A stretch of DNA of 64,000 nucleotides from an uncultured Faecalibacterium sp. (lineage in GTDB: Bacteria > Bacillota > Clostridia > Christensenellales > Aristaeellaceae). The DNA is taken from contig CAYXHF010000004.1 in assembly GCA_964464815.1 (NCBI GenBank), positions 2,483-66,482 of the forward strand, read 5' to 3'. The notes under the pieces are model-generated. The model was given only the letters and a program-made list of their open reading frames with translations. It had not been told where the DNA came from and made no database searches. The position numbers and the translations under genes were made by a program. This document shows, piece after piece, positions 14,786 to 63,455 of the stretch (position 1 is the first letter of the stretch; each line of letters starts with the position of its first letter).

Positions 14786-16111
14786 TTATTCGGCCGCTTC
14801 GACCCAGCCGCGATATACCGCAATTTCATACACACCCTGCGCCATGCCCTCGGCCAGCCACTGCTGGTAGGTCGGGTTGATGAGCAGATATTCCTCCGCG
14901 GCATTGGACAGATACCCCATTTCCACCAGGAAGCAGGTCATCTTCGCCCAGTTGTTGCCCACGTAGTTATCGTTGAGATACACCATGCCGGTCGCGTTGG
15001 TGTGCGTCATGCCGAGGGAATCCTTCATCGCGTCAATCAGCAATTGTCCCATTTGACGGTACGTCTCCGCATCAGCCACTGCCTTGGCGTAATCGCTGTT
15101 GAGCGGCCCATAGACCTGCAAGCCGCGCTTGCTGGTGTTGGAGGAGCTGTTGCAGTGCAGGCGGAGCATGATGTCCGCGCCACCGTTTTCTGCAATTTCA
15201 CAGCGCTCGATGTTGGTGTGGTACGTCTCCTGATCCACGCGTGTCATCACTACATTCGCGCCCTGACGCAGCAGCTCATCCCGCAGCAGCATCGCCACCT
15301 CCAGGCAGACAATATGCTCGCGGCGGTTCGTCTTGTTGCCCTGCGCCATGCCGCCCTTGCCGCTGGTCGAACCAGCCAGACCCGGACCAATCGGCTCATT
15401 GACGAACTTGCTGACCTCCTGATGGCCCGCATCGATGCAGACCGTCACGCCACTCAGTCGGCCTTCCTGACGTTCGGGCGCTTCCGGCGCCAGATAGCCC
15501 TTGCGCACCTCGGCCTCCTTCTTCACACTGCCAGAGCCGTTCTGGATTTGCACCTTGAACAGCGTGCGCGCGAAGGTCAGGTCGCTGACGATTTCGCCCG
15601 CATAGTGGCCGTTTTCATCCGGGTAAATCGGCTGCGTCACGGTCTGCTGCTTGCTGCGGTAGTACAGCAGCATGTAGTCCGTGTCTGCGGCGGTGAAGGA
15701 GTAGGTGAAGCCCGTTGGCGTCTCCGTCAGGACAAGATTCTGCACCTTGCCGTTCGACTTGCCAGTCGGCTTCTGGTAGTCGGCCGCCTGCGGAACAGTC
15801 ACGGTTGCCTTGCCGATGCCATACGTCGTGCGCGCTGAAGTCAGGCTGACCGTTGCCTTGCCGCCTGCACCCGAATAGGCAAGTGCCACATCGCCCTCAA
15901 AGCGGCCCTCCTCGTTGTAGAGGATCATCCAGCCCTTTTCCGCCGGGGTGGAATATTCCAGAATCACGAACGGATCGTTTTCACCCGCATCAAATGCGTA
16001 ATGCAGCACGTATTCCTCTGCCGTCAGCGTGATGGCCATGCCCGCCGCAAGCGCAGGTGTCATCAGCGTCAGCAGCACCAATGCCAGCAGCAGCGCCACG
16101 AATCTCCTCAT
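14786..16111 (-). CDS. N-acetylmuramoyl-L-alanine amidase (Amidase_3) with an N-terminal extracellular domain
   Basis: Signal peptide. The C-terminal domain carries CIDAGHQ, LRLHCNS and FLVEMGYLSN, characteristic of Amidase_3. Confidence 0.85.
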   Translation of the reverse strand: MRRFVALLLALVLLTLMTPALAAGMAITLTAEEYVLHYAFDAGENDPFVILEYSTPAEKGWMILYNEEGRFEGDVALAYSGAGGKATVSLTSARTTYGIGKATVTVPQAADYQKPTGKSNGKVQNLVLTETPTGFTYSFTAADTDYMLLYYRSKQQTVTQPIYPDENGHYAGEIVSDLTFARTLFKVQIQNGSGSVKKEAEVRKGYLAPEAPERQEGRLSGVTVCIDAGHQEVSKFVNEPIGPGLAGSTSGKGGMAQGNKTNRREHIVCLEVAMLLRDELLRQGANVVMTRVDQETYHTNIERCEIAENGGADIMLRLHCNSSSNTSKRGLQVYGPLNSDYAKAVADAETYRQMGQLLIDAMKDSLGMTHTNATGMVYLNDNYVGNNWAKMTCFLVEMGYLSNAAEEYLLINPTYQQWLAEGMAQGVYEIAVYRGWVEAAE

Positions 16112-34024: not shown

Positions 34025-37000
34025 TTATTCCTGCTCCAGCTGCTTTCTGGCGGCCGAGAGCATCAGCTTGACGCGGTTGAGCTGGTTGACCTCGCTTGCG
34101 CCAGGGTCAAAGTCCACCGCGCAGATATTGGCCTGCGGATAGTGCCTGCGCAGCTGCTTGATGACACCCTTGCCCACCACATGGTTGGGCAGGCACGCAA
34201 AGGGCTGAATGCAGACGATATTCGGCACGCCCGTGAGCAGCAGCTCGGCCATTTCACCGGTCAGGAACCAGCCCTCGCCATACTGATTGCCCAGCGACAG
34301 GAACGGCTGCGCCAGGTCAGCAATCTGCTCAATGGGCATGGGCGCTTCAAAGCGTTTGGACTTTTCCAGTGCCTTCAGGGCCGGATGACGCAGGGCACGA
34401 ATCGCCTTCACGCCCAGCACAGCACCAGCCTCGCTCGTCCACGGCTTGCCCAGCGATTCATGCTTGAACTTGCCGTTGTAGACGGAGTAGTTCATGAAGT
34501 CCATCAGGTCAGGCACGACTGCCTCCGCGCCTTCCTCTTCCAGCAGTTCCACCAGATGGTTGTTCGCCACCGGCATGTACTTGACCAGAATTTCGCCCAC
34601 GATGCCCACACGCGGCTTCTTGACATCCTCGTGAATCGGCAGGGTATCGAAGTCCTTCACCAGCTGCTGGCAGAGGTCGCTATAGCGGCCATGACCATTC
34701 ACCAGGTGGTCAATGCACTTCTCCGACCAGCGGTCAGCCAGGTCATTGGCGCTACCCTTGGTCACTTCATACGGGCGCACACGGTACAGGCAGCGCATCA
34801 GCAAATCGCCCAGCACCACCGCCTGTGCCGCACCCATGAGCAGCGGCAGCGTGAAGTGGAAGCCTTCGTTCGTTTCCAGACCGCCCGCATTGATGGAAAT
34901 GACCGGGATGTGGCCAAGTCCTGCCTTCTCCAGGGCGCGGCGGATAAAGCCCACGTAGTTGCTGGCGCGGCAGCAGCCACCGGTCTGCGTCATGGCCAGG
35001 GCCAGACGATCCGTGTCGTACTTGCCGGACAAGACCTCCTCCATCATCTGACCCACCGTAATGATGGACGGATAGCAGGCGTCATTGTTGACAAATTTCA
35101 AGCCCGTGTCGATGGCCGAGCGGGAATCGTTTTCCAGCATGACCACATGATAGCCATACTTCTCCATCACCGGCTGCAACAGGCGGAAATGAATCGGCGA
35201 CATGTTGGGCGCCAGAATCGTGTAGCCCTGCTTCTGCATATCGCGGGTATACTCCACGCGGTGATACGTTGCAGGAATCGGATGCGCCGTGATGCCGCGC
35301 TTTTCGCGCTGCGCCATGGCCGCCAGCAGGGAACGCACACGGATGCGCGCCGCACCCAGCGAGTTCACCTCGTCAATCTTAATCAGCGTATAGAGCTTGC
35401 CGCAGCGCTCCATAATTTCCGCCACCTGATCGGTCGTCACAGCGTCCAGACCGCAGCCGAAGGAGTTGAGCTGAATCAGCTCCAGATCGTCCCGCTGGCT
35501 GACAAACTGCGCCGCCAGATACAGGCGCGTGTGGTACACCCACTGGTCCATCACGCGCAGCGGATGGCTGCCCGTAAAGGATGCGGGAATGCTATCCTCA
35601 GTCAGCACCGCCAGGCCGTAGGAGGCAATCAATTCCGGCATGCCGTGGTTGATTTCCGGGTCCACATGGTAGGGACGACCTGCCAGCACAATGCCCTTGC
35701 GATGATTTTCCTTCATCCAGAGCAGTGCCTTCTGGCCCTCGGCACGAACGTCCGTCTTGGCGCAGAGCTGTTCCTCCCAGCCCGCATGGACGGCCGCACG
35801 GACTTCCTTTTCCGGAATGCGGTACGTCTGGCGGAAGAAGCGCACCAGCGTATCGGCCGCCGTCTTCTCATCCGTCAGCGCCAGGAAGGGCTTGAGCATG
35901 CGCACGCGGCCTTCCGTCACGTCCTCGACATTGTTGGCGATGTTTTCCGGATTGGCGGCCACCATCGGGCAGTTGAAGTGATTCTGCGCCTGTGCATCCT
36001 CCTGGCGTTCATAGAAGACGCTGGGATAGAAAATCGTGCCGACGCCTTCATCAATCAGCCACTGCACATGGCCATGCGCCATTTTGGCCGGATAGCATTC
36101 GCTCTCCGACGGAATGGACTCCATGCCCTTTTCGTAAATCGCCCGGCTGGATGCAGGAGAGACGATGACGCGGAACTTCAGCTTCGTCAGCAGCGTCATC
36201 CAGAAGGGGAAGTTTTCGTACATATTCAGCACGCGCGGAATGCCCAGCACACCACGCGTCGCCTCTTCCTCCGCCAGCGGCTGATAGTCAAAGAGGCGCT
36301 TGAGCTTATACGCCATGACATTGGGCGCTTTTTCGCCCTTGACGGCCTGACCCAGACCCTTTTCACAGCGGTTGCCGGTGATGTGGCGGCGTCCACCGGG
36401 GAAGAGGCTGACCGTCAGCATGCAATGGTTCGTGCAGCCCTGACAACGAGCCGTGCGCGTCTGCCATTGCAGGGCCAGAATTTCTTCCAGCGGCAGGGTC
36501 GAGGAGACGGCATCGGGATTGCTCTGTGCCTTTTCGCGGGCAATCAGCGCCGCGCCAAAGGCACCCATCATGCCGGAAATATCCGGGCAGGAGGCTTCCA
36601 CGCCCGTCAGCTGCTCAAAGGCACGCAGAACGGCTTTGTTATGGAAGGTACCGCCCTGCACCACGATGTGTTCGCCCAATTCCTTGGGGTCGGCCAGCTT
36701 AATGACCTTGAACAGCGCGTTCTTGATAACCGAGCAGGCCAAGCCGGCGCTGATGTCCTGAATGGATGCGCCCTGCTTCTGTGCCTGCTTGACATTGGAA
36801 TTCATGAAGACCGTGCAGCGCGTACCCAAATCGACCGGCTGCTTGGCAAAAAGTGCCTCAGCGGCAAAGCCCTCGGCGGTATAGCCCATGGAGTTTGCAA
36901 AGTTTTCCAGGAAGCTGCCGCAGCCGGAGGAGCAGGCTTCGTTGAGCAGGATGGTGTCCACCGAGCCATTTTTCAGCTTGATGCACTTCATGTCCTGACC

Positions 37001-38299
37001 ACCGATGTCCAGCACGCAATCGACCTTGGGGTCGAAGAAGGCCGCGGCGGTGCAGTGCGCAATCGTCTCCACCTCGCCATCATCGAGCCGGAAAGCGGAT
37101 TTGAGCAGGCTTTCGCCATAGCCCGTGGAGCAGGAGCGTGCGATTCGCGCCGTTTTGGGCATCTGCTCCATCAATTCGCGCATGGCCTGGCGCGCCGTGT
37201 CAATCGGACTGCCGGAATTGCCCGCGTAGAAGCTGTAGAGCAATTCGCCGTCTTCGCCAATCAGTGCCACCTTCGTTGTGGTTGAACCGGCGTCAATGCC
37301 CAGATAGCAGCGGCCGTTGTACGTCGCCAAATCGCCACGCTGCACCTTCGCCTTTTCGTGACGATGCAGGAAATCCGCATATTCGTCATGATTACGGAAC
37401 AGCGGCGGCAGGTGCTTGAGCCCAAAGGTCAGCATCACGCCCTGCTGCAAGCGTTCCAGCAGGCTATCCATCGGCACAGCCTCGCCCTGCGTGTCCTGCA
37501 TGGCGGCCATGGCCGCGCCCGTGGCGGCAAAGAGGTGCGAATTCTTGGGCACAATCGCCGTTTCGTCCGTCAGATGCAGCGTGCGCACAAACGCCGCGCG
37601 CAGCTCCGACAGGAAGTGCAGCGGGCCACCCAGGAAGGCCACATGGCCGCGAATCGGCTTGCCGCACGCCAGACCGGAAATCGTCTGATTCACGACCGCC
37701 TGGAAAATGGAGGCCGCCAGGTCTTCTCGTGCCGCACCTTCGTTGATCAGCGGCTGGATGTCACTCTTGGCGAACACGCCACAGCGCGCCGCAATCGGAT
37801 ACAGCTCATGATAATTCTTCGCCAGCTCATTCAGACCCGGCGCATCCGTTTTCAGCAGTGCCGCCATCTGGTCAATAAACGAACCCGTGCCACCGGCGCA
37901 AACGCCATTCATGCGCTCCTCCAGGCCACCGGTGAAATAAATAATCTTGGCATCCTCGCCGCCCAATTCAATGGCGACGTCCGTCTGCGGAGCGACCTTT
38001 TGCAGCGTTTCCGCCACGGCCACAACCTCCTGCACGAAGCCCACATGCAGCGCCTCGGCCAGCGAAATTGCGCCCGAACCCGTCATCTGTACCTTCACGC
38101 GGCATGCACCCAGCTTTTCGCGCGCCTCCCGCATCATTTCGGCCAGCGTTTCCTGCGTGTGTGCGCAGTGACGGCGATATTCGCCCCACACCATTTCTCC
38201 CGCTTCATTCAGCAGCACCAGCTTGACGGTGGTAGACCCGATGTCAATGCCCGCGTAATAAAAAGAGGAATTCTGTTCCATTTGCAGTACCTCACCCAT
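34025..38299 (-). CDS. 1424-aa fusion: two BcrAD/BadFG-type activase ATPase modules plus 2-hydroxyacyl-CoA dehydratase-related domains
   Basis: Two ASKHA ATPase starts (YAGIDIGSTTVKLVLL and YLGIDAGSTTTKVALI). Cys-rich cluster region. Long C-terminal DUF2229/dehydratase-like region. Confidence 0.8.
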   Translation of the reverse strand: MGEVLQMEQNSSFYYAGIDIGSTTVKLVLLNEAGEMVWGEYRRHCAHTQETLAEMMREAREKLGACRVKVQMTGSGAISLAEALHVGFVQEVVAVAETLQKVAPQTDVAIELGGEDAKIIYFTGGLEERMNGVCAGGTGSFIDQMAALLKTDAPGLNELAKNYHELYPIAARCGVFAKSDIQPLINEGAAREDLAASIFQAVVNQTISGLACGKPIRGHVAFLGGPLHFLSELRAAFVRTLHLTDETAIVPKNSHLFAATGAAMAAMQDTQGEAVPMDSLLERLQQGVMLTFGLKHLPPLFRNHDEYADFLHRHEKAKVQRGDLATYNGRCYLGIDAGSTTTKVALIGEDGELLYSFYAGNSGSPIDTARQAMRELMEQMPKTARIARSCSTGYGESLLKSAFRLDDGEVETIAHCTAAAFFDPKVDCVLDIGGQDMKCIKLKNGSVDTILLNEACSSGCGSFLENFANSMGYTAEGFAAEALFAKQPVDLGTRCTVFMNSNVKQAQKQGASIQDISAGLACSVIKNALFKVIKLADPKELGEHIVVQGGTFHNKAVLRAFEQLTGVEASCPDISGMMGAFGAALIAREKAQSNPDAVSSTLPLEEILALQWQTRTARCQGCTNHCMLTVSLFPGGRRHITGNRCEKGLGQAVKGEKAPNVMAYKLKRLFDYQPLAEEEATRGVLGIPRVLNMYENFPFWMTLLTKLKFRVIVSPASSRAIYEKGMESIPSESECYPAKMAHGHVQWLIDEGVGTIFYPSVFYERQEDAQAQNHFNCPMVAANPENIANNVEDVTEGRVRMLKPFLALTDEKTAADTLVRFFRQTYRIPEKEVRAAVHAGWEEQLCAKTDVRAEGQKALLWMKENHRKGIVLAGRPYHVDPEINHGMPELIASYGLAVLTEDSIPASFTGSHPLRVMDQWVYHTRLYLAAQFVSQRDDLELIQLNSFGCGLDAVTTDQVAEIMERCGKLYTLIKIDEVNSLGAARIRVRSLLAAMAQREKRGITAHPIPATYHRVEYTRDMQKQGYTILAPNMSPIHFRLLQPVMEKYGYHVVMLENDSRSAIDTGLKFVNNDACYPSIITVGQMMEEVLSGKYDTDRLALAMTQTGGCCRASNYVGFIRRALEKAGLGHIPVISINAGGLETNEGFHFTLPLLMGAAQAVVLGDLLMRCLYRVRPYEVTKGSANDLADRWSEKCIDHLVNGHGRYSDLCQQLVKDFDTLPIHEDVKKPRVGIVGEILVKYMPVANNHLVELLEEEGAEAVVPDLMDFMNYSVYNGKFKHESLGKPWTSEAGAVLGVKAIRALRHPALKALEKSKRFEAPMPIEQIADLAQPFLSLGNQYGEGWFLTGEMAELLLTGVPNIVCIQPFACLPNHVVGKGVIKQLRRHYPQANICAVDFDPGASEVNQLNRVKLMLSAARKQLEQE

Positions 38300-44867: not shown

Positions 44868-45138
44868 TGTGCTGAGCCGACGTGGTTTGTTCTATAAATG
44901 CAATCTGTTAGCATGCTATGATATATTGTTCCAATCAGAGGCAACCCGAAGGGGTTTAAGGGGGCGACCGGAAATCCCCCTGGGCGGCAGACACAAACCA
45001 GTAACTCGGAGAAAGTCAATCCCCAAGCAAACGCTCCCAACCTCCCAAAATAAATCAAAAATTTCATGAAAAGTTCTTCCTAAATTCATGAAAGCGCCTT
45101 ATAATACAGAACGCAAGAAAAAGAAGGAGGGAAAAACG

Positions 45139-46908
45139 ATGCTTCGGATTTTGAAGCACCTGACATGGAAGGAATGGCTTCTCGTGCTTTGTAGCGTGGT
45201 CCTGATTGTGGGCCAGGTGCAGCTCGACCTTGCTTTGCCTGACTATATGTCGGAAATCACTCGACTGGTGCAGACGGACGGTAGCGCCATGCGTGACATT
45301 TTGCTCTCTGGTGGCAAAATGCTCCTGTGCGCACTCGGCTCGATGCTGCTGACCATCGGCACAACGTTCTTTACATCGCAAATTGCCTCGCGCTTCTCCG
45401 CGCGGCTGCGTGCCAAGGTTTATGGCAAGGTGGTCGGCTTCTCGAATGAGGAGATTAACCGCTTCTCCACCGCCAGCCTGATTACACGCTCCACCAACGA
45501 CATTTCGCAGCTGCAAATGTTCTTTTCCGTTGGCATGCAGTCGCTGATTAAGGCGCCCATCATGGCGTTTGTGGCGGTAGGGAAAATCAGCAGCAAGAGC
45601 TGGGAATGGACCCTGCTGACCGCCGGCACGATTGGCTTTGTGTGCATTCTGCTCGTCTTCATCATGATTTATGCCGTGCCGCGCATGAAGAAGATGCAGA
45701 CGCTGACGGATAACCTGAACCGCATCACGCGCGAAAACCTGACCGGCCTTCAGGTCGTGCGTGCCTATAACGCCGAAGGCTATCAGGAGGGCAAGTTCTC
45801 CCGCGCGAATGAGGAAATGACCCGCAATAGCCAGCAGGGCAATATCGCCATGTCCGTCATGAACCCGGGCATGAATATGGCCATGAACACGCTGACGCTG
45901 GGCATCTACTGGATTGGCGCGACGCTGATTAGCGCCGTGGCGTTGGACTCCGCAGCCGCCATGCAGCAGCGCATCGGCCTGTTCTCCGACATGGTGGTGT
46001 TCATGCAGTATGCCATGCAGGTCATTATGGCCTTCCTGATGCTGGTGATGCTGTTTGTGATGCTGCCGCGCGTGACCGTTTCGGCCAAGCGTATTAACGA
46101 GGTGCTGGACACGCAGGCGCGCATCCACGACGGCAAGGAGACGCAGGGCAAGCCCGGCATGAAGGGCGAAATCGAATTCCGCGATGTGTCCTTCCGCTAT
46201 CCCGATGCCGATGGCGACGCGGTGCATCATATCTCCTTCACCGCGCATCAGGGACAGACCGTGGCACTCATCGGCGCGACCGGCTGCGGCAAGAGCAGCA
46301 TCATCAACCTGATTCCGCGCCTGTTTGACGCCACCGATGGTCAGGTGCTGGTGGATGGTGTGGACGTGCGCGATTATACGCAGTCTGCCCTGCGCAGCAA
46401 GATTGGCTTTGTGCCGCAAAAGGCGTTCCTGTTCTCCGGCACGGTCAGCAGCAACGTCGGCTATGGCACGGAGGATGCCGCGACGGAAGCCGTCCACAAG
46501 GCGGTTCAAATTGCACAGGCGGCAGAATTTGTGGAATCGCAGGAGGTTGGCTACTCCGGCGCTGTGGCGCAGGGTGGCTCGAACTTCTCCGGCGGCCAGA
46601 AGCAGCGCCTGTCCATCGCCCGTGCAGTGGCGCGTGACCCGGAAATTCTGGTGTTTGACGACTCCTTCTCGGCGCTTGACTACAAGACCGACCGCACGCT
46701 GCGTGCTGCCCTGAAAGAGCAGACCAACGGCACGACCAACATCATCGTCGCCCAGCGTATCGGCACGATTCGCGACGCGGATTGCATTTTGGTCATTGAG
46801 GATGGCAAAATTGTGGGCAAGGGAACGCACAGCGAGCTGATGCAGTCCTGTCAGGTGTATCAGGAAATCGCGTATTCCCAGCTGTCAAAGGAGGAGCTTG
46901 CATCATGA
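45139..46908 (+). CDS. ABC exporter, fused permease/ATPase (heterodimer subunit 1)
   Basis: Six TM segments plus an NBD: GATGCGKSS, FSGGQKQRLSIARA, LVFDDSFSALD. AAGGAGG lies 8 nt before the ATG at 45139. Confidence 0.9.
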   Translation: MLRILKHLTWKEWLLVLCSVVLIVGQVQLDLALPDYMSEITRLVQTDGSAMRDILLSGGKMLLCALGSMLLTIGTTFFTSQIASRFSARLRAKVYGKVVGFSNEEINRFSTASLITRSTNDISQLQMFFSVGMQSLIKAPIMAFVAVGKISSKSWEWTLLTAGTIGFVCILLVFIMIYAVPRMKKMQTLTDNLNRITRENLTGLQVVRAYNAEGYQEGKFSRANEEMTRNSQQGNIAMSVMNPGMNMAMNTLTLGIYWIGATLISAVALDSAAAMQQRIGLFSDMVVFMQYAMQVIMAFLMLVMLFVMLPRVTVSAKRINEVLDTQARIHDGKETQGKPGMKGEIEFRDVSFRYPDADGDAVHHISFTAHQGQTVALIGATGCGKSSIINLIPRLFDATDGQVLVDGVDVRDYTQSALRSKIGFVPQKAFLFSGTVSSNVGYGTEDAATEAVHKAVQIAQAAEFVESQEVGYSGAVAQGGSNFSGGQKQRLSIARAVARDPEILVFDDSFSALDYKTDRTLRAALKEQTNGTTNIIVAQRIGTIRDADCILVIEDGKIVGKGTHSELMQSCQVYQEIAYSQLSKEELAS

Positions 46909-53959: not shown

Positions 53960-55780
53960 TTACTGCTTATTACGCCACTGGCGTGCGCGGTCGCCCGCAT
54001 TCAGGATGCGCTTGCGCATGCGCAGCGTCTTCGGGGTGATTTCCAGCAGCTCATCGTCGTCGATGAACTCCAGGCACTCCTCCAGCGTCAGCGGATGGAC
54101 GGAAATCAGGCGCATCGCGTCTTCGGAAGCGGAAGCGTTGCGCATGTTGGTCACGTGCTTCTGCTTGCAGACGTTGACGACCAGATCGTCCGGACGCGCG
54201 TTCTGACCCACAATCATGCCCTCGTAGACATTTTGCTGTGCGCCGATGAACAGCGTGCCGCGCTCCTGCGCATAGAACAGGCCGTAGGAGGTCGAAACGC
54301 CGCTTTCATGCGCAACCAGTGCGCCCACGTTGCGGTGCGGAATGTCGCCCTTAATCGGCTCGTACTTCTCGAACACGGCGGACATGATGCCTTCGCCACG
54401 GGTGTCGGTCATGAACTCGCTGCGATAGCCGAACAGGCCACGGGACGGCACCAGGAATTCCAGGCGCACACGGTCCAGACCAGACATATGCTCCAGCGTA
54501 CCACGGCGGCGGCCAATCTTCTCAATAACCGCACCAGCAGACGCCTGAGGCGTATCGACGACAAGGCGCTCAATCGGCTCGCACTTCACGCCGTCAATTT
54601 CGCGATAGATGACGCGCGGCTTGGACACGGCGAACTCGTAGCCCTGACGGCGCATGTTTTCAATCAGGATGGACAGATGCAGTTCGCCACGGCCGCAAAC
54701 CTCAAAGGCATCCGTGCTGTCGGTGTCGTTGACGCGCAGGGAGACGTCCGTCTGCAACTCGCGCATCAGGCGCGCGCGCAGGTGACGGCTGGTCACATAC
54801 GTGCCTTCACGGCCGGCGAACGGAGAGTCATTGACCTGGAAGGTCATCGTGACGGTTGGTTCGCTAATCTTGACAAAGGGCAGCGCCTCGATGCATTCCG
54901 GTGCGCAAACGGTGTCACCAATGGACAAATCCGGTGCGCCGGAGAGCGCCACGATGTCGCCCATGCCAACCGTCTCCGCATCCACGCGCTTGAGGCCGTC
55001 GTACTGATACAGGCTACCCAGACGCCACTGCTGGCTGGTCACGCCAGTCTGGCTGTTGGTGTGGATGACGTTCATGCCCGCCTTGAAGGAGCCGCGCATC
55101 ACGCGACCCACGCCAATGCGGCCCACATACTCGGAGTAGTCGATGGTGGAAATCAGCACCTGTGCCGGGCCGTCGGGATCACCCTCGGGTGCGGGAATGT
55201 ACTTCAGGATGGAATCGAACAGCGGGCGCAGGTCCGTGCCGGGCGTGTCCAAATCCAGCGTCGCCGTACCCTTACGGGCGGAGACGTAGAGAATCGGGTT
55301 CTCAATCGTGCTTTCGTCTGCTTCCAGGTCAATCAGCAGGTCGAGAATCTCGCCCACGACCTCCTCGCAGCGCGCATCGGGACGGTCAATCTTGTTAATG
55401 ACAATCATGACCTTCAGCTTCAGCTCCAGCGCCTTCTTCAGCACGAAGCGCGTCTGGGGCATCGGGCCTTCAAAGCTGTCCACCAGCAGCAGCACGCCGT
55501 CCACCATCTTCAGCACGCGTTCCACTTCGCCGCCGAAGTCCGCGTGACCAGGGGTATCGACGATGTTAATCTTCGTGTTGCCATAATGCACAGCCGTGTT
55601 CTTGGCCAGAATGGTGATGCCGCGTTCACGTTCAATCGCGCCGGAGTCCATCACGCGGTCTACGGTCTGCTGATTTTCATGATACACACCGCCCTGCTTG
55701 AGCATCTGGTCAACCAGCGTGGTCTTACCATGGTCAACGTGGGCAATAATAGCAATGTTGCGAATATCTTCACGAACCAT
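53960..55780 (-). CDS. typA: translational GTPase TypA/BipA
   Basis: [38 protein letters not shown]. 606 aa. Confidence 0.95.
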
Positions 55781-55795
55781 TCGTTATACTCTCCT

Positions 55796-57415
55796 TTACT
55801 TTCGGTTGGCCGTTTCTGCCAGCACGAGTCCGTCGTTGTTTTCACAGGCCAGACGGATGCTCCAGTCATTTTCAAACAGCAGCACATCGCGGTCGCGGCT
55901 GTCCTTGGCACGGCCGGAGGTCGAGGTCAGCTTCAGCTGATCCACAGGCTTGGGCGTGGAGACGACCCAGCGCACATAGCGGAAGGGCATCGACTCCATG
56001 ATAATATCCACCTGATATTCCGATTTCAGGCGATGCTCCAGCACTTCAAACTGTAGCACGCCGACAACGCCGACCATGAACTCCTCGCGGCCCGTTTCGG
56101 TGCGCACGAAGGTCTGGATTGCGCCTTCCTCCGCCAGCTGGCTGATGCCCTTCTGGAACTGCTTGCGCTTCATGGAGTCCACCGGGCGCACGCGGGAGAA
56201 GAATTCCGGCGCGAAGACGGGAATATCCTCATAATGCAGCTTCGGGCCACCGGAAAGCGTATCGCCCAGCTGATAAATACCGGGATCGAACAGGCCGATG
56301 ATGTCACCAGCCCACGCTTCTTCCACCGCCTCGCGTTCATCGGCCATGAACTGCTGGGGCTGCTTGAGCGTGACGACCTTGTTCGTGCCGGAATGCCAGA
56401 CGTCCATGCCCTTTTCAAACGCGCCGGAGACAATGCGCATAAACGCCAGTCGATCGCGGTGCGCCGGATTCATGTTGGCCTGAATCTTGAAGATGAAGCC
56501 GGAGAAGTAGGGCTGCTCAGGCGTGATGTCACCCATATCGCTCTTGCGGGACAGGGGCGGCGGCGTGAATTGCAGGAAGCGCTCCAGGAACGGCTCGACG
56601 CCGAAGTTCGTCACGGCAGAGCCGAAGAACATGGGCGTCAGCTCGCCACGGCGCACCTTCTCCAAATCGAAGGCATCGCCCGCTTCATCCAGCAGGTCGA
56701 TTTCCTCCGCCAGACGGTCGCGGTAATGCTTGGCCAGCACATGCTCCAAAGCCGGATCATCAATGGCGATGTCCGTCTTCTGCACCATGGACTTGCCGTG
56801 GTCGCCGCCGGTATACAGCTCCACCAGCTTTGTATCGCGGTGATACACACCCTGGAAGTCGCCATCCGTGCCAATCGGCCAGTTGATGGGGCAGGAGCGG
56901 ATGCCCAGCACCTGTTCCAGCTCCTCCATCAGCGCGAAGGGATCCTTGGCGGCGCGGTCCATCTTGTTCACAAAGGTGAAAATCGGGATCTGACGCATGC
57001 GGCAAACCTTGAACAGCTTGATGGTCTGGGCCTCAACGCCCTTGGCCGCGTCAATCAGCATGACAGCCGCATCGGCCGCCACCAGCACGCGGTAGGTATC
57101 CTCCGAGAAGTCCTGATGGCCAGGGGTATCCAGAATGTTGATGCGGTAGCCGTCAAATTCAAACTGCATGGCAGAGGACGTGACGGAGATGCCACGCTGC
57201 TTCTCAATATCCATCCAGTCAGAGGTGGCATGCTTATCGCTCTTGCGTGCCTTCACGCTGCCGGCAGAACGAATCGCACCGCCGTAGAGCAGGAGCTTTT
57301 CCGTCAGCGTGGTCTTGCCCGCGTCCGGGTGCGAAATGATGGCAAAGGTCCGGCGCTTCTCCACCTGCTCGTGCAGCAGGTCGCGGAAGGCTGGGGTGTC
57401 ATTAGCTGGCAGCAT
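55796..57415 (-). CDS. prfC: peptide chain release factor 3
   Basis: RRTFAIISHPDAGKTTLTEKLLLYGGAI, DTPGHQDFSEDTYR, NKMDR. GGAGG lies 7 nt before the ATG. Confidence 0.95.
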   Translation of the reverse strand: MLPANDTPAFRDLLHEQVEKRRTFAIISHPDAGKTTLTEKLLLYGGAIRSAGSVKARKSDKHATSDWMDIEKQRGISVTSSAMQFEFDGYRINILDTPGHQDFSEDTYRVLVAADAAVMLIDAAKGVEAQTIKLFKVCRMRQIPIFTFVNKMDRAAKDPFALMEELEQVLGIRSCPINWPIGTDGDFQGVYHRDTKLVELYTGGDHGKSMVQKTDIAIDDPALEHVLAKHYRDRLAEEIDLLDEAGDAFDLEKVRRGELTPMFFGSAVTNFGVEPFLERFLQFTPPPLSRKSDMGDITPEQPYFSGFIFKIQANMNPAHRDRLAFMRIVSGAFEKGMDVWHSGTNKVVTLKQPQQFMADEREAVEEAWAGDIIGLFDPGIYQLGDTLSGGPKLHYEDIPVFAPEFFSRVRPVDSMKRKQFQKGISQLAEEGAIQTFVRTETGREEFMVGVVGVLQFEVLEHRLKSEYQVDIIMESMPFRYVRWVVSTPKPVDQLKLTSTSGRAKDSRDRDVLLFENDWSIRLACENNDGLVLAETANRK

Positions 57416-57522
57416 GGGGTTTCCTCCTACATATATTCACAAGTCTCCGTGTGTGTCGCCCGGAGGCATTTTCCGGCATCAAACATACACTTTGACCAAA
57501 AAAGCAGATTGTCCGACTGTTT

Positions 57523-57551
57523 ATTTTATCGCCAAGTGCGCCGCTTGTCAA
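57523..57551 (-). promoter_or_regulatory. candidate sigma-A promoter of prfC-typA
   Basis: On the minus strand: TTGACA (57551-57546), 17-nt spacer, TAAAAT (57528-57523). Confidence 0.5.
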
Positions 57552-57656
57552 GGTGTTTTCAAGGACTTCATGGCTTTCATGGTGCTTATTTTTCCGATTT
57601 CTCCGAACCGCGCAAAAAAAGTATTTTCCTGCCGGCTTTTTTTCTGTTTCGGCATC

Positions 57657-58025
57657 TTATCCACAATTTGTCCACTTTTCATCCCCAACTCATCCACAGA
57701 TATGCCCACTTATCCACCGCCCGGAGCCCGGAAAACCTTCGTCATGGCCGCAGACGGTGCTTTTGTGATTCCAGGGGGTCTCATCGGCCATAAGTGACAA
57801 TCGCCAAAGACGATTTATGCATCGAATTTGCATGTTTATGCAATTTTTACGCCCTTTCGTCACCATTTTCTGGTTTTTCACAGAATAATCCACAGGTTTC
57901 CCTTTGGGTGGAAAACTTCTGTGGATAACCCTGTGGACAATGTGGATAAGTCCGGGAAATCCGCAGAATTTCAAGCATATTTCGACAAAAAGCTTTGTGG
58001 ATAAGCCTGTGGAAACCGGGGATAA
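57657..58025. promoter_or_regulatory. dense DnaA-box cluster (candidate oriC-type or DnaA-regulatory region)
   Basis: Perfect TTATCCACA at 57657. Perfect TGTGGATAA at 57920, 57941 and 57996. One-mismatch boxes at 57690, 57710, 57886 and 57932. Two-mismatch boxes at 57668, 57679, 57907, 58008 and 58017. The left array has 11-bp spacing. The two arrays face each other across an AT-rich core at 57813-57850. Confidence 0.75.
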
Positions 58026-58069: not shown

Positions 58070-58954
58070 ATGCATCATCCTTCAATCGCCGATATGCCCC
58101 AAAAGCATAAACATGCGTTTGCCCATTCCCTTTCCGTCATGCCGGAGGGCTTGTCAACATACCATACACCACGGAGGTGGCTTCCTTTGGCACAGAAACC
58201 GGACTTTTTCGACAGGTTTTCCAAACGCACGCTGCCCGTGCTGGTCGGCGTTTTGCTGGGCATCGGCGTGCTGCTGATGCTGCTTTGCCTAATAAAAACG
58301 CCCCAAAGACAGGACGCGGCACCGCCCACACCCACGCCAACAGCAGCACCTGTCGGGCCGCTCAGTGGGCGCACGATTCTGGTTGACGCAGGTCATGGCG
58401 GCTACGACGGTGGCGCACGCTGCCGCGATTCCGGCACATGGGAGAAGGCATTGAACCTCGCCGTTGCGCTTTGCGTGGAGCAGGAGCTTTCCTCGCGCGG
58501 CGCAGTGGTGCTGATGACGCGCCGCAGCGACGTCGATTTGTGCGACGACGTGCCGCCTGACGGCCTGACGAAGAAACGCCAGGACATGCAGCGGCGCGTC
58601 GATATGGCCACCAGCGGTCAGGCCGACATGGTGCTGTCCATCCACATGAACGAATACCGCGTGCGCACTGAATCCGGCCCGCAGGTCTTCTACCGCGCCG
58701 GCTGCGACAGTGGCCGTCTGCTGGCTGGCATCATGCAGGAGGCGCTCATCACGCACCTGACGCCCCGCAAGGAGCGCAGCGCCATGGCCGGAGACTACTT
58801 CATCCTTCAGCTGGACATTCCCTCCGTGCTGGTGGAATGCGGGTTTATCTCCAACGCACAGGAGGAGGCGCTATTGCGCACGGAGGAGTATCAATCGCGC
58901 CTTGCCCTCGCCATTGCGGATGCGGTCGGGGAGTATTTCCAGCTTGCCAGATAA
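58070..58954 (+). CDS. cwlD: N-acetylmuramoyl-L-alanine amidase, CwlD-like
   Basis: One TM segment, then ILVDAGHGGYDGG, SIHMNEY and VLVECGFISN (Amidase_3). Size and architecture are like the germination-specific CwlD. Confidence 0.75.
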   Translation: MHHPSIADMPQKHKHAFAHSLSVMPEGLSTYHTPRRWLPLAQKPDFFDRFSKRTLPVLVGVLLGIGVLLMLLCLIKTPQRQDAAPPTPTPTAAPVGPLSGRTILVDAGHGGYDGGARCRDSGTWEKALNLAVALCVEQELSSRGAVVLMTRRSDVDLCDDVPPDGLTKKRQDMQRRVDMATSGQADMVLSIHMNEYRVRTESGPQVFYRAGCDSGRLLAGIMQEALITHLTPRKERSAMAGDYFILQLDIPSVLVECGFISNAQEEALLRTEEYQSRLALAIADAVGEYFQLAR

Positions 58955-59038: not shown

Positions 59039-59176
59039 TCAGTGGCAGCCCTTGCACTTGCTGCAATCGCCGCCGCAGCTGCAAACAGATGTGCCGTTCT
59101 TCTTGTCCTTGACCATCTTCCAAATGATTGCGCCAACAATCAAAAGAAGGATTCCGCCAACAATTACGTTTGCCAT
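59039..59176 (-). CDS. FeoB-associated Cys-rich small membrane protein
   Basis: MANVIVGGILLLIVGAIIWKMVKDKKNGTSVCSCGGDCSKCKGCH: one TM segment plus a C-terminal Cys cluster. Last gene of the feo operon. The start could be 59182. Confidence 0.75.
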   Translation of the reverse strand: MANVIVGGILLLIVGAIIWKMVKDKKNGTSVCSCGGDCSKCKGCH

Positions 59177-59345: not shown

Positions 59346-61712
59346 TTACGCCGAAACCTTCTGAGTCAGGTGATTCTCGTTGTAGGGGTTCTTGCGAACC
59401 AGCATGTAGACAAAGCCAACCAGCAGCACGATAGCAATCGCCGTTGCCACGGTGAAGCCAGCACCCGCAAACAGCAGACCCAGCTGGTAGACAATCAGCG
59501 CCACCGCATAGGCGAAGCCGCACTGATAGGCCACCGCAAACAGCGTCCACTTGCCGTTGTTGAACTCACGCTTCATCGCGCCAATGGCCGCGAAGCAGGG
59601 CGCGCACAGCAGGTTGAAGATCATGAAGGCATACGCTGCCAGACGGCCATGGCCATTGGAGGATTCGTTGAAGGCCGCTGTAATCGTGCTCAGCGCTTCT
59701 TCCTTCTCCACATCGGTCATGTCTTCGTCATCGACCACGTCCGCGGCGTCATCCGCGCCATACAGCACGCCCAGCACGCCAACGACCTCTTCCTTGGCCA
59801 CCAGACCCATCACCGTTGCCACGGTCGAGGGCATATTGCCAAAGCCCAGGGGCTTAAACACAACGCTGACCGGGTTGCCAATGCGGCCCAGCACGGAGTA
59901 GTCCATGTCGCCAACAGCACCCCAGGAACCAGCGGCGCGATCCATTTCGGGCGCCAGCTCCGGCTCGGCGGGTTCCTCGGCATCCTCTTCCAGCGTGCCA
60001 GCCTCAGCCGCCGCGTCAAAGTCTGCCTTGAGCTGCTCGTATTCCACCATTTCTTCCTGATAGGCCAGCTTGGCTTCTTCCTGCACATCCGCTGCCGGCG
60101 CCCAGCCATAGGAGCTGGCAAACCAGATGACGATGGAGGAGAGCAGAATGACCGTACCAGCACGCTTGATGAAGCTCCAGCCACGCTCCCACACGCTGTG
60201 GAAAATGTTGCGGCCAGACGGGAAGTGATAGGAAGGCAGCTCCATCACGAACGGTGCCGGATCGCCCGCAAACGCCTTCGTCTTCTTGAGCATGATGCCG
60301 GAAACGACAATCGCCGCCACACCGATAAAGTACGCAGAGGTTGCCACCCAAGCACTGCCACCAAACACCGCCGCGGCAATCAGACCGATAATCGGCATCT
60401 TCGCGCCGCAGGGAATGAAGGTCGTGGTCATGATGGTCATCTTGCGGTCACGGTCGCTCTCGATGGTACGCGAGGCCATGATGCCGGGAACGCCACAGCC
60501 CGTGCCCACCAGCATCGGGATGAAGCTCTTGCCCGAAAGACCAAACTTACGGAAGATACGGTCCATGATGAACGCGATACGCGCCATGTAGCCGACGTCT
60601 TCCAGAATCGCCAGCAGCAGGAACAGCACCAGCATCTGCGGCACAAAGCCCAGCACAGCGCCGCAGCCGCCAACAATACCGTCCACCACCAGACCGGTCA
60701 GCCACGAGGCAACGCCCGCGCCTTCCATGACATGTTGCAGGTTGCCCTGAATCCATTCGCCAACGAACACGTCGTTGGTCCAGTCCGTCACAAGCGTACC
60801 GATGGTGCTGACGGAGATGTAATAGACCAGGAACATAATCAGCGCGAAAATCGGCAGGGCCAGAATACGGTTGGTCACAACACGGTCAATCTTGTCCGAA
60901 ATCGTCAGACTGCCCTTGCTCTTGCCCTTCTTGACGGAATTCTGAATCAGCGTGTTGATGTAGGCATAGCGCTGATTGGTGATGATCGACTCCGCATCGT
61001 CATCCATTTCCTGCTCGCAGGACACGATAGCGGCCTCAATGCCCTTCTTCACATCCGTGGGCAGGGACAATTCCGCAAGCACCTTTTCGTCGCGCTCAAA
61101 GAGCTTCACGGCGTACCAGCGCAGGAAGCGCTTTTCCACCTTATTCTCAATCAGGTCTTCAATATGCGCCAGCGCATGCTCCACCGAGCCGGTGAAGACG
61201 TGCGGATGCTCACCCGACTGCTTCTGCCCGGCCACAGCGGCTGCCTTTTCAGCGGCCTGAATGCTGCCTTCGCCCTTAAGCGCGGAGGTCGCGATCATCT
61301 CCACACCCAGCGCGGCGCTGAGCTTTTTCAGGTCAATCTTGTCGCCATTCTTGCGGGAGACGTCAATCATGTTCATGGCAATGACCATGGGCGTTCCCAA
61401 TTCCAGCAGCTGCGTGGTCAGATACAGGTTGCGCTCGATGGAGGTCGCATCCACGATATTGAGGATGACGTCCGGCTTGTCGTTCACCAGATAGTTACGG
61501 GCAACGACCTCTTCCAGCGTATAAGGGGAGAGAGAGTAAATACCCGGCAAGTCCTGAATGACCACCTCGTCATTTCCCTTGAGCTTGCCTTCCTTCTTTT
61601 CTACCGTCACACCCGGCCAGTTGCCCACAAACTGACGCGAACCCGTCAGGGCATTGAACATGGTCGTTTTGCCGCAGTTCGGATTACCTGCCAGCGCAAT
61701 TGTAATCGCCAT
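59346..61712 (-). CDS. feoB: ferrous iron transporter FeoB
   Basis: G-domain IALAGNPNCGKTTMFNALTG and DLPGIYSL, followed by a polytopic membrane domain. GGAGG lies 8 nt before the ATG at 61712. Confidence 0.95.
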   Translation of the reverse strand: MAITIALAGNPNCGKTTMFNALTGSRQFVGNWPGVTVEKKEGKLKGNDEVVIQDLPGIYSLSPYTLEEVVARNYLVNDKPDVILNIVDATSIERNLYLTTQLLELGTPMVIAMNMIDVSRKNGDKIDLKKLSAALGVEMIATSALKGEGSIQAAEKAAAVAGQKQSGEHPHVFTGSVEHALAHIEDLIENKVEKRFLRWYAVKLFERDEKVLAELSLPTDVKKGIEAAIVSCEQEMDDDAESIITNQRYAYINTLIQNSVKKGKSKGSLTISDKIDRVVTNRILALPIFALIMFLVYYISVSTIGTLVTDWTNDVFVGEWIQGNLQHVMEGAGVASWLTGLVVDGIVGGCGAVLGFVPQMLVLFLLLAILEDVGYMARIAFIMDRIFRKFGLSGKSFIPMLVGTGCGVPGIMASRTIESDRDRKMTIMTTTFIPCGAKMPIIGLIAAAVFGGSAWVATSAYFIGVAAIVVSGIMLKKTKAFAGDPAPFVMELPSYHFPSGRNIFHSVWERGWSFIKRAGTVILLSSIVIWFASSYGWAPAADVQEEAKLAYQEEMVEYEQLKADFDAAAEAGTLEEDAEEPAEPELAPEMDRAAGSWGAVGDMDYSVLGRIGNPVSVVFKPLGFGNMPSTVATVMGLVAKEEVVGVLGVLYGADDAADVVDDEDMTDVEKEEALSTITAAFNESSNGHGRLAAYAFMIFNLLCAPCFAAIGAMKREFNNGKWTLFAVAYQCGFAYAVALIVYQLGLLFAGAGFTVATAIAIVLLVGFVYMLVRKNPYNENHLTQKVSA

Positions 61713-61786
61713 GATTGGCGCCTCCTTTTCCATCCTTCAGCCTTGAAAACCGATGCTTTCCCGTTTGCATGCGGACAGGGAAGGGC

Positions 61787-62008
61787 TTATTCCACTTCCA
61801 CCATTTCCGCATCGGCCTTGCGAATGCTCAGCTCATAGCCACGCACCGTCAATTCCATCGGATCACCCAGCGGCGCGACCTTGCGCACGTGAATCTGCGT
61901 GCCGCGCGTCAGTCCCATGTCCATGATGCGACGCTTGATTGCACCCTCGCCATGCAGACGGACAATCACAGCATTCTCGCCGACCTTAACATCCTTGAGC
62001 GTCTTCAT
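61787..62008 (-). CDS. feoA: FeoA family protein
   Basis: 73 aa. VIVRLHGEGAIKRRIMDMGLTRGTQIHV is a typical FeoA SH3-like pattern. Confidence 0.9.
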   Translation of the reverse strand: MKTLKDVKVGENAVIVRLHGEGAIKRRIMDMGLTRGTQIHVRKVAPLGDPMELTVRGYELSIRKADAEMVEVE

Positions 62009-62021
62009 GCTTCCATCCTCC

Positions 62022-62243
62022 TCAGCTTACCAATACACGCATCGCCATGGATTGGCTCAGCGCAATGCGGCTATCCTTCACGGCACAAATCAGGTTGCCG
62101 CCCATTTTGCTGACAATCGTGACTGTTTCGCCCATCACAAAGCCCAGCTCTGCCAAATGCTGCCGCACCTCATCCAATCCGGTGATTTTTCCAATCACGC
62201 CCGACTGGCCGATTTCTACCATGCCCAATGGCATCATGTTCAT
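62022..62243 (-). CDS. feoA: FeoA family protein (second copy)
   Basis: 73 aa. GVIGKITGLDEVRQHLAELGFVMGETVTIV. Confidence 0.85.
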   Translation of the reverse strand: MNMMPLGMVEIGQSGVIGKITGLDEVRQHLAELGFVMGETVTIVSKMGGNLICAVKDSRIALSQSMAMRVLVS

Positions 62244-62273: not shown

Positions 62274-62338
62274 ATTAGTTTGACATAACTAATCTGTCGC
62301 AACGGTGTTAGTTTATCACAACTAACCATCAATGTCAA
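62274..62338 (-). promoter_or_regulatory. feo promoter with two palindromic operator sites
   Basis: On the minus strand: TTGACA (62338-62333), 17-nt spacer, TAAACT (62315-62310). The palindromes are ATTAGTT-TGACAT-AACTAAT (62274-62293) and GTTAGTT-TATCAC-AACTAAC (62307-62326), with centres 33 bp apart. The second fills the -35/-10 spacer. Confidence 0.6.
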
Positions 62339-62422
62339 CCCCTGTTTCCCGCTTTTTTTCCTTTTCGGATAAAACCCCTGCAAATTGGGAAGAATGGCAG
62401 GCAAAAAGGAATTGTTATCCTC

Positions 62423-62636
62423 ATTTCCGTCTAAAACATGTCACCGAGCATCGTGGATTTTTCTTTCTGGCAAAGCTGCGTGCAGCGAGGCGTACTGGAG
62501 GTACGCGCGAGCGGAACGAAGCAAAGCCAGATGGAGGTCAGGTTTTTGCCTGACTAGCGCCGGGCTTGGCCCGGTGATGGCCGATGCAGAAACATACACT
62601 GTGCGAATGACATGGAGTAGATGAAAATTAGTATTA
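62423..62636. repeat. 214-nt structured dispersed repeat C, copy 2
   Basis: Gap-free alignment to 42984-43197. The closing stem here is CATGTCA (62437-62443) / TGACATG (62608-62614), a compensatory change relative to copy 1. Confidence 0.85.
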
Positions 62637-62653
62637 AAAAACAGGAGGCAAAA

Positions 62654-62938
62654 ATGAAGGAATGGGCGGCCTGGATGGCGAACAAAATGGAGGAGACACT
62701 TTTTCGCTTGGAGCAGCTCCGTCTGGCGGAGTTTCTTGCCTATGAGCAGGACTGGAAGCGTCGCTTGCTGATGCAGTTTGTTTCCGGCCTTGCCCGTGGT
62801 CTGGGCACAGCCATCGGCTTCACGCTGCTGGGTGCGCTGGCCGTCTGGCTGCTGCAAGGTCTGGTACAGCGGAATCTGCCGGTCATTGGCGATTTTCTGG
62901 CCAAGCTTCTCGCCCTGGTGGAAGGAAAAGGGCAATAA
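62654..62938 (+). CDS. small membrane protein (DUF5665-like)
   Basis: AGGAGG at 62643-62648 lies 5 nt before the ATG at 62654. 94 aa with one or two C-terminal TM segments (GTAIGFTLLGALAVWLL). The family name is from memory. Confidence 0.6.
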   Translation: MKEWAAWMANKMEETLFRLEQLRLAEFLAYEQDWKRRLLMQFVSGLARGLGTAIGFTLLGALAVWLLQGLVQRNLPVIGDFLAKLLALVEGKGQ

Positions 62939-62975: not shown

Positions 62976-63455
62976 GTGCGTACCTCTGCCATTGGATGGC
63001 TTTCCCTGTCGGCGCTTGTGATTGCGCTGGACAGGCTGACCAAGGCGCTCGCCGCCGCTTTCCCGGAGGAAATCACCCTCATTCCCGGCGTGCTGCGCTG
63101 GATTTATGCGGAGAATACCGGCATGTCCTTCAGCCTGCTCAGCGGGCATTCGTGGCTGCTGGGCGTGTTTTCCGTGGTGGCGATTGTGGTGTGCGGCGTG
63201 TTTCTGTCGCGCTATCAGCTCAGCCGGTGCAGTCGCCTTGGCGCGGTGCTGATGGCCAGCGGCGCACTCAGCAACGCCTACGACCGCCTGATGATGGGAT
63301 ATGTCGTGGATATGCTGGACATTACGCTTTTCCCTTTTGCTGTGTTTAATTTGGCAGACACGGCCCTGACCATCGGCGCGGTGCTGATGGCCTACTGTCT
63401 GCTGCTTCGTACAGAGGACTGGAGGAAGAAACCACATGACGCAAGAAACGCCTGA
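62976..63455 (+). CDS. lspA: lipoprotein signal peptidase II
   Basis: LIPGVLRWIYAENTGMSFSLL and FAVFNLADTALTIGAVL are conserved LspA motifs. A GTG start at 62976 lies after GGAAGG. Confidence 0.85.
   Translation: MRTSAIGWLSLSALVIALDRLTKALAAAFPEEITLIPGVLRWIYAENTGMSFSLLSGHSWLLGVFSVVAIVVCGVFLSRYQLSRCSRLGAVLMASGALSNAYDRLMMGYVVDMLDITLFPFAVFNLADTALTIGAVLMAYCLLLRTEDWRKKPHDARNA

Follow-up and report, generated by a model that had tools for sequence, protein, structure and literature searches.

A dense group of DnaA boxes lies between prfC and cwlD in an uncultured, Christensenellales-like member of the Clostridia, a host group of gut and rumen, and the question it raises is what such a cluster does so far from any dnaA gene. 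The first-pass annotation had left two options, a replication origin not linked to dnaA or a strong secondary cluster, with the added remark that the boxes overlap the upstream region of cwlD, which would bring this gene under DnaA control. We rescanned the 64-kb window (the whole stretch of DNA that was analysed) and compared it with homologous loci from relatives. Our reading, which we regard as probable, is that this is a secondary, non-origin DnaA-box cluster which forms a conserved upstream region of cwlD and is coupled to that gene.

The box cluster and its surroundings

Scanning the window for TTATCCACA returned four perfect DnaA boxes, at 57657 on the plus strand and at 57920, 57941 and 57996 on the minus strand, and none elsewhere in the 64 kb. 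Four boxes in the cluster carry one mismatch (57690, 57710 and 57886, plus strand; 57932, minus strand), perfect and one-mismatch boxes alike falling exactly where they had first been placed. Boxes with two mismatches number seven (57668, 57679, 57874, 57907, 58008, 58017 and 58054), in line with an earlier count of at least five. Across the whole window there are 25 boxes with at most one mismatch, compared to 8.2 ± 2.9 in dinucleotide shuffles; the densest 400 bp hold 8 of this class (shuffle maximum 3, n = 300) and 15 boxes with at most two mismatches (shuffle maximum 8, n = 300). The box density is confirmed as statistically real, above shuffled sequence. The cluster and the genes around it are arranged as follows.

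53960-55780, minus strand: typA
55796-57415, minus strand: prfC (release factor 3), divergent neighbour (NCBIfam, 758 bits against a cutoff of 473)
57523-57551, minus strand: sigma-70-type promoter of prfC, TTGACA, 17 nt, TAAAAT (11/12 matches)
57657-57718, plus strand: left head-to-tail array (57657 perfect; 57668 and 57679 with two mismatches; 57690 and 57710 with one)
57813-57850, no strand: AT-rich patch, 74% A+T, carrying two copies of TTTATGCA (57814, 57835) and one of TTTGCATG (57827)
57874-57894, plus strand: box pair TTTTTCACA and TAATCCACA, 12 bp from start to start, facing the minus-strand arrays
57907-57949, minus strand: single box GGTGGAAAA, then module 1, TGTGGATAA ccc TGTGGACAA TGTGGATAA
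57950-57995, no strand: 46-bp inter-module spacer, variable between lineages
57996-58025, minus strand: triple-box module 2, TGTGGATAA gcc TGTGGAAAC CGGGGATAA
58158-58177, plus strand: invariant alignment columns CATAnnnT (58158-58165), then the ribosome-binding site GGAGG (58173-58177)
58187-58954, plus strand: CwlD-like N-acetylmuramoyl-L-alanine amidase gene, TTG start, 255 aa (Pfam Amidase_3)
59039-59176, minus strand: small FeoB-associated ORF, with homology to locus L168 of a sister species
59346-61733, minus strand: feoB
61787-62240, minus strand: two feoA genes
about 62655-62938, plus strand: DUF5665 gene
62977-63455, plus strand: lspA
63436 onwards, plus strand: rluD

The left array had been described as running head to tail at 11-bp spacing through 57701. 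This spacing holds for 57657, 57668, 57679 and 57690, but there is no box with two or fewer mismatches at 57701, where the best register by eye is 57700 with three mismatches, and the 57710 box begins 20 bp after the one at 57690. The right array runs in the opposite orientation, as previously recorded, and consists of two triple-box modules (box, 3 bp, box, 0 bp, box) at 57920-57949 and 57996-58025. The opposed arrays flank a modestly AT-rich patch. This patch is, as had been claimed, the richest 38-mer of the intergenic region and lies between the arrays, and its repeats TTTATGCA and TTTGCATG can be read directly at the positions given for them, but it is ordinary within the window, where 11 others are at least as AT-rich. 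It stands 60-95 bp from the nearest boxes. The alignment of other lineages places a CGAACAT(G/A)CA repeat patch at the corresponding position, and the patch carries conserved repeats that are not DnaA boxes, TTTATGCA in the window and CGAACATNCA in relatives.

Of the two gene names, prfC is firm. For cwlD the best NCBIfam match by far is TIGR02883 (spore_cwlD), with the full profile covered but with 179 bits under its 221-bit cutoff, and a protein identical to it (100%), P0001, is on record. Neither prfC nor feoB gave an exact-protein match; the best prfC match among the genome representatives was 91%. The prfC promoter, 106 bp from the nearest box, was the sole find of the sigma-70 scan, which gave no confident promoter for cwlD. 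The invariant CATAnnnT lies 7 nt before the ribosome-binding site of cwlD and may be a mother-cell sigma-type -10 element; we set this candidate beside the control of B. subtilis cwlD, a sigma-E gene repressed by SpoIIID (PMC517825). Inspection by eye found no sigma-E, -F, -G or -K promoter in the AT-rich patch, and no LexA or SpoIIID site, that was consistent across lineages. Neither the Rfam nor the tRNA scan of the window gave a match. The sequence TTCGACA at 57981-57987, between the triple-box modules, is the complement of a perfect Spo0A box (TGTCGAA); it occurs in the window and L168 only, being absent from more distant lineages, and was therefore left out of the conserved element. A coding explanation for the intergenic region was rejected, as the 178-aa open-reading frame called in L168 does not run through in the window, and small spacer indels between lineages shift the reading frame so that no frame is conserved.

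Other features were recorded in the surrounding DNA. A 140-bp block at 57492-57630, comprising the prfC promoter together with ~80 bp on its upstream side, matches L168 at 100% identity, compared to 62-81% in the flanking intergenic DNA; prfC itself shares 95-100% nucleotide identity with L168, and the neighbouring genes about 90%. The identity of the block suggests that there has been recent recombination, or else that a leader and upstream element is under unusual constraint. Upstream of feoA-feoA-feoB, two 18-bp palindrome-like sites (TTAGTTTGACATAACTAA and TTAGTTTATCACAACTAA, 33 bp apart, in 62275-62325) presumably resemble operators of DtxR/IdeR-type iron repressors, and in locus L178 a DtxR/IdeR-family repressor gene adjoins cwlD. 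The ~200 bp at 62430-62630, between feoA and the DUF5665 gene, have no L168 counterpart (identity <0.1), and a 32-nt imperfect inverted repeat flanks them on both sides (62412-62443 and 62608-62639); this segment may be a small inserted element. Further to the left, an unbroken run of ~20 minus-strand genes extends over 35 kb (3438-38299), its products including a 1424-aa protein (34025-38299) that has two acyl-CoA dehydratase activase domains, as well as several very large proteins which are related to ABC-transporter substrate-binding proteins or lack family matches. The sister-species locus L168 carries the map ~6 kb past the end of the window, through rluD, a VanY-domain gene and two minus-strand genes.

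Co-inheritance of the boxes with cwlD

We gathered homologues from CwlD at falling identity and compared their genomic contexts, which are given below with the identity of CwlD, the left and right neighbours and the state of the cluster.

L168: CwlD 84%; left, prfC; right, feoB side; cluster present
L178-181: CwlD 68%; left, prfC; right, iron-dependent repressor gene; cluster present
L182: CwlD 70%; left, AraC-type gene (plus strand); right, convergent rluD; cluster present
L190: CwlD 63%; left, AraC-type gene (plus strand); right, gene of unknown function, then rluD; cluster present
L184/185: CwlD 68%; left, epimerase gene (plus strand); right, convergent rluD; cluster present
L186 (Aristaeellaceae): CwlD 60%; left, PrsA-like gene (plus strand); right, AraC-type gene, inverted; cluster present
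L189: CwlD 61%; left, unknown gene (plus strand); right, chloride-channel gene; cluster present
L187/188: CwlD 61%; left, divergent ECF sigma-factor gene, 135-bp intergenic region; right, FliB_C-domain gene; cluster absent

In seven lineages, whose CwlD proteins are 60-84% identical, a core of nine box positions is fixed in order, orientation and spacing, and sits 170-335 bp upstream of the cwlD start codon. The layout recurs as a plus-strand pair, a single minus-strand box, module 1, a spacer of ~50 bp and module 2. Box columns are 92% identical across six lineages, compared to 62% for non-box and spacer columns (Mann-Whitney p = 2e-16), and the alignment of eight sequences shows nearly invariant boxes between drifting spacers: the TCCACA of the second box of the plus-strand pair is invariant, and the first box of module 2 identical, in 8/8 sequences, whilst all four box positions of 57907-57949 are kept in six lineages. 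Identity to the sister species L168 reaches 97% in the right array, about 78% in cwlD and only 62-67% in the stretch 57630-57829. The left 11-bp array, on the other hand, is confined to the prfC-adjacent subclade (the window, L168 and L178-181) and is absent in L182, L184, L186, L189 and L190, five of the seven lineages.

A scan of the genome collection found the cluster upstream of prfC in 0/80 relatives' prfC loci, none of which has cwlD beside prfC. These prfC-only loci at first resembled a case of non-conservation; the cluster follows cwlD, not prfC, and prfC is, on this comparison, outside the conserved unit. The early remark on a link to cwlD is supported, the cluster being missing upstream of prfC wherever cwlD is not adjacent, as is the secondary-cluster option, since the cluster is kept as a unit with cwlD in seven lineages with differing other neighbours. 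In L186 this unit is flipped relative to the AraC, M48-peptidase and CinA genes, as compared with L182 and L190, which implies that cluster and cwlD move together. The left neighbour has changed at least five times and the right one at least four, with the orientation of the cluster to cwlD kept and the distance between them nearly constant throughout. The conserved entity is therefore a ~1.4-kb cassette of box cluster plus cwlD, in which an array of canonical DnaA sites, under purifying selection, is joined in cis to cwlD. L187/188, which has cwlD without the cluster, shows that the link is not obligatory.

The neighbourhood of the cassette varies in other ways. The DUF5665-lspA-rluD block is co-directional with cwlD in the window, with the feoAB genes inserted between, and in L182, L184 and L190 it is convergent on cwlD and directly adjoins it (in L190, one gene further), which points to an inversion near the 3' end of cwlD. 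A metagenome scan with an rluD fragment gave one close locus, L081, without cwlD or cluster beside feoB; in this locus a homologue of the window gene at 45088-46908 sits ~8 kb downstream of rluD.

The same alignments bear on whether DnaA is the protein concerned. The 9-mers could be bound by a different regulator, or be relics of the origin of a mobile element or plasmid, and the conserved non-DnaA repeats of the AT patch (TTTATGCA; CGAACATNCA in relatives) and the changes of genomic context count in favour of such readings. However, the motif matches the canonical DnaA box exactly, conservation falls on the box positions, no rep, integrase or transposase gene lies nearby, and the intergenic region holds no conserved reading frame, all of which makes either version highly improbable. 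A plasmid or phage origin was rejected separately, blastn searches of 72,556 plasmids and 50,697 phages having given no match.

The replication-origin question

If the cluster were the chromosomal oriC of the clade, it would be an origin unlinked from dnaA and missing a recognisable DnaA-trio module, in which filaments from the opposed arrays open the AT patch; for a Firmicute this would be an unusual architecture. The cluster lies in an intergenic region, as a DnaA-box cluster of an oriC is expected to, its canonical box density is high, it is conserved across lineages, and the AT-richest stretch of the intergenic region sits between the arrays. The oriC of E. coli has arrays of comparable opposed arrangement, which the opposed arrays here recall in their 11-bp or abutting spacing. 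Origins are not always found beside dnaA (PMC10225481), that of E. coli being 42 kb away from it (PMC3245932).

The reported absence of dnaA from the window was upheld by tblastn with B. subtilis DnaA, for which matches in the unrelated L090 and L091 served as positive control: neither the window nor any of the cwlD and prfC loci gave a match. On the left, 57 kb of sequence contain neither dnaA nor dnaN; on the right the same holds for about 12 kb, of which synteny with L168 supplies the final 6 kb, and the gene tables of seven lineages show no dnaA, dnaN or other usual origin neighbour within about ±10 kb, which counts against an origin here.

Whole-sequence GC skew was dominated by a coding-strand effect, and skew at third codon positions (GC3) was used instead. 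Read on the plus strand, GC3 skew is -0.051 to the left and -0.046 to the right of the cluster, on a right flank of ~10 kb and in a genome of weak skew, and there is no switch of sign such as an origin calls for. To the left, 80% of coding bases are on the minus strand and the skew is negative, and this bias over the left 57 kb points to an origin lying rightwards of about 38 kb, which counts in favour of oriC. On the right flank (window and L168), however, 65% of coding bases are also on the minus strand and 35% point away from the cluster, and on the right flanks of L182, L184 and L186 76-79% of coding bases are directed towards it, with away-pointing bases making up 21-24% on the right and 15-48% on the left. 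Right-flank genes thus point mostly at the cluster in four lineages (65-79% of coding bases), and flanks that point towards it in L182, L184 and L186 are the opposite of an origin pattern. GC skew and gene-strand bias had been named at the outset as a check for an origin; over the window and the L168 flank, neither a skew switch nor divergence of genes coincides with the cluster.

The basal unwinding rule (PMC8287927) asks for a box, a spacer of at most 16 bp and then at least three NAN trios. No box is flanked by a DnaA-trio run longer than 3, which equals the formal minimum and is at chance level, compared to 9 in the B. subtilis control, and this run is not conserved between lineages. The AT patch, at only 38 bp and 74% A+T, is equalled by 11 others in the window. 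Further against an origin, the left array is missing in five of seven lineages, the related L187/188 has cwlD without the cluster, and the 1.4-kb unit swaps both of its neighbours repeatedly, which inversions centred on an origin would not yield. The likeness to an oriC with a basal unwinding system is therefore confined to box density, opposed orientation and the AT-richer segment between the arrays; trios beyond chance, an indicator gene and a skew or strand change, as described for such origins (PMC8287927, PMC10225481), are missing here, and the AT patch is ordinary. What is origin-like at this locus is box density and orientation only. The origin-like option thus does not withstand the tests on dnaA, GC3 skew, gene divergence, DnaA-trios and the AT patch, and we regard it as very unlikely that the cluster is the clade's oriC.

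Proposed control of cwlD and sequestration of DnaA

The closest known systems are the DnaA-box clusters outside oriC in B. subtilis, where DnaA stably binds six intergenic clusters, at yqeG-sda, ywlB-ywlC, yycS-yydA, ywcI-vpr, gcp-ydiF and jag-thdF (PMC2533591, PMC3245932, PMC4447404), activating sda and repressing ywlC, yydA and others (PMC2533591, PMC3245932, PMC4447404). These clusters also damp initiation and hold DnaA from oriC (PMC3245932). The cwlD cluster is like them in being intergenic and dense in high-affinity boxes (PMC2533591), probably away from an unwinding site, and in standing upstream of a gene that such clusters can control in B. subtilis and that is predicted to be controlled here. 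It is also conserved upstream of the same gene in related species, in our case cwlD in seven lineages and with L187/188 as the exception, and the sda cluster of B. subtilis ties replication to sporulation (PMC2533591, PMC3245932, PMC4447404). It differs in its target, since the eight major regions stably bound by DnaA in B. subtilis do not include cwlD (PMC2533591, PMC4447404), in its stereotyped architecture of two triple-box modules, and in its host, an uncultured Christensenellales-like clade.

A second comparison is with E. coli. There, datA works with IHF and promotes hydrolysis of DnaA-bound ATP, and at the DARS sites a defined core of three boxes stimulates nucleotide exchange. Like datA and DARS1/2, the cwlD cluster is a chromosomal cluster of high-affinity boxes, probably outside oriC, and would modulate the pool of active initiator (PMC3245932); unlike it, datA and DARS are not known to be tied to a particular downstream gene across species.

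In the reading that we favour, a secondary cluster coupled to cwlD, DnaA-ATP would nucleate on the three or four perfect boxes and spread cooperatively over the abutting weaker boxes (gaps of 0-3 bp) to give a stable oligomer, as at the B. subtilis clusters. Such a complex would make transcription of cwlD depend on the level or activity of DnaA, that is, on replication status. Most likely cwlD would be off in replicating vegetative cells and released as DnaA activity drops in sporulation. As a by-product the locus would soak up DnaA, away from oriC, like the B. subtilis clusters. The left array (57657-57718) would be a lineage-specific extension found only beside prfC, and may also touch prfC expression.

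Small box clusters occur before other genes of the group. In L020, five boxes at 11063-11179 (TGTGGA[A/G]AA variants and one perfect box) are followed by a strong promoter (TTGACT, 17 nt, TATAAT) and a gene whose N-terminus reads like the ATP-cone of the anaerobic ribonucleotide reductase NrdD; in L052, three perfect boxes and one with a single mismatch (15464-15559) stand just before a gene start. These clusters suggest that DnaA acts as a transcription factor in the group.

The alternative that comes nearest to a coupled cluster is a sink or modulator of DnaA only, datA-like or B. subtilis-like, which would tune the timing of initiation without any effect on cwlD, the two being neighbours by closeness. 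Its precedent is the restraint of initiation by the B. subtilis clusters, as cited above. A gap of at least 130 bp separates the boxes from the sole candidate promoter element downstream, and the interval between module 2 and the start codon varies by ~36 bp between lineages, so that classical repression by promoter occlusion is not evident; the two triple-box modules, moreover, are kept more strictly than anything between them and cwlD. At ~170 bp from cwlD, co-inheritance is weak evidence of functional coupling, and a pure sink beside cwlD would give a like pattern. On sequence the two readings look alike, save for the maintained orientation and distance to cwlD, and it is this that tells against a sink alone: the same orientation and nearly the same distance have persisted through all of the neighbour changes listed above, including a flip in place. 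Most of the B. subtilis clusters, too, regulate an adjacent gene (PMC2533591, PMC4447404). We consider a sink with no effect on cwlD unlikely, and less probable than the secondary cluster coupled to cwlD. The more specific proposal, that DnaA directly gates a spore-cortex gene and so provides a link between replication and sporulation that differs from the Sda route of Bacillus, is possible and more probable than an origin, and we put it forward tentatively.

To our knowledge, most work on secondary DnaA-box clusters comes from a few model organisms, and the coupling of replication to sporulation in clostridia is poorly understood. What the present locus adds is cwlD as a target gene, the host clade and the stereotyped double triple-box architecture: a strongly conserved cluster that accompanies a sporulation gene, one of cortex maturation, in an uncultured clade from gut and rumen. 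It also carries a warning for origin predictors, as box density and opposed arrays alone would lead to this locus being mis-called as oriC in metagenome-assembled draft genomes. If DnaA controls cwlD, the cluster would provide a direct route from replication status into late spore morphogenesis, and it offers a testable lead on replication-sporulation coupling outside Bacillus.
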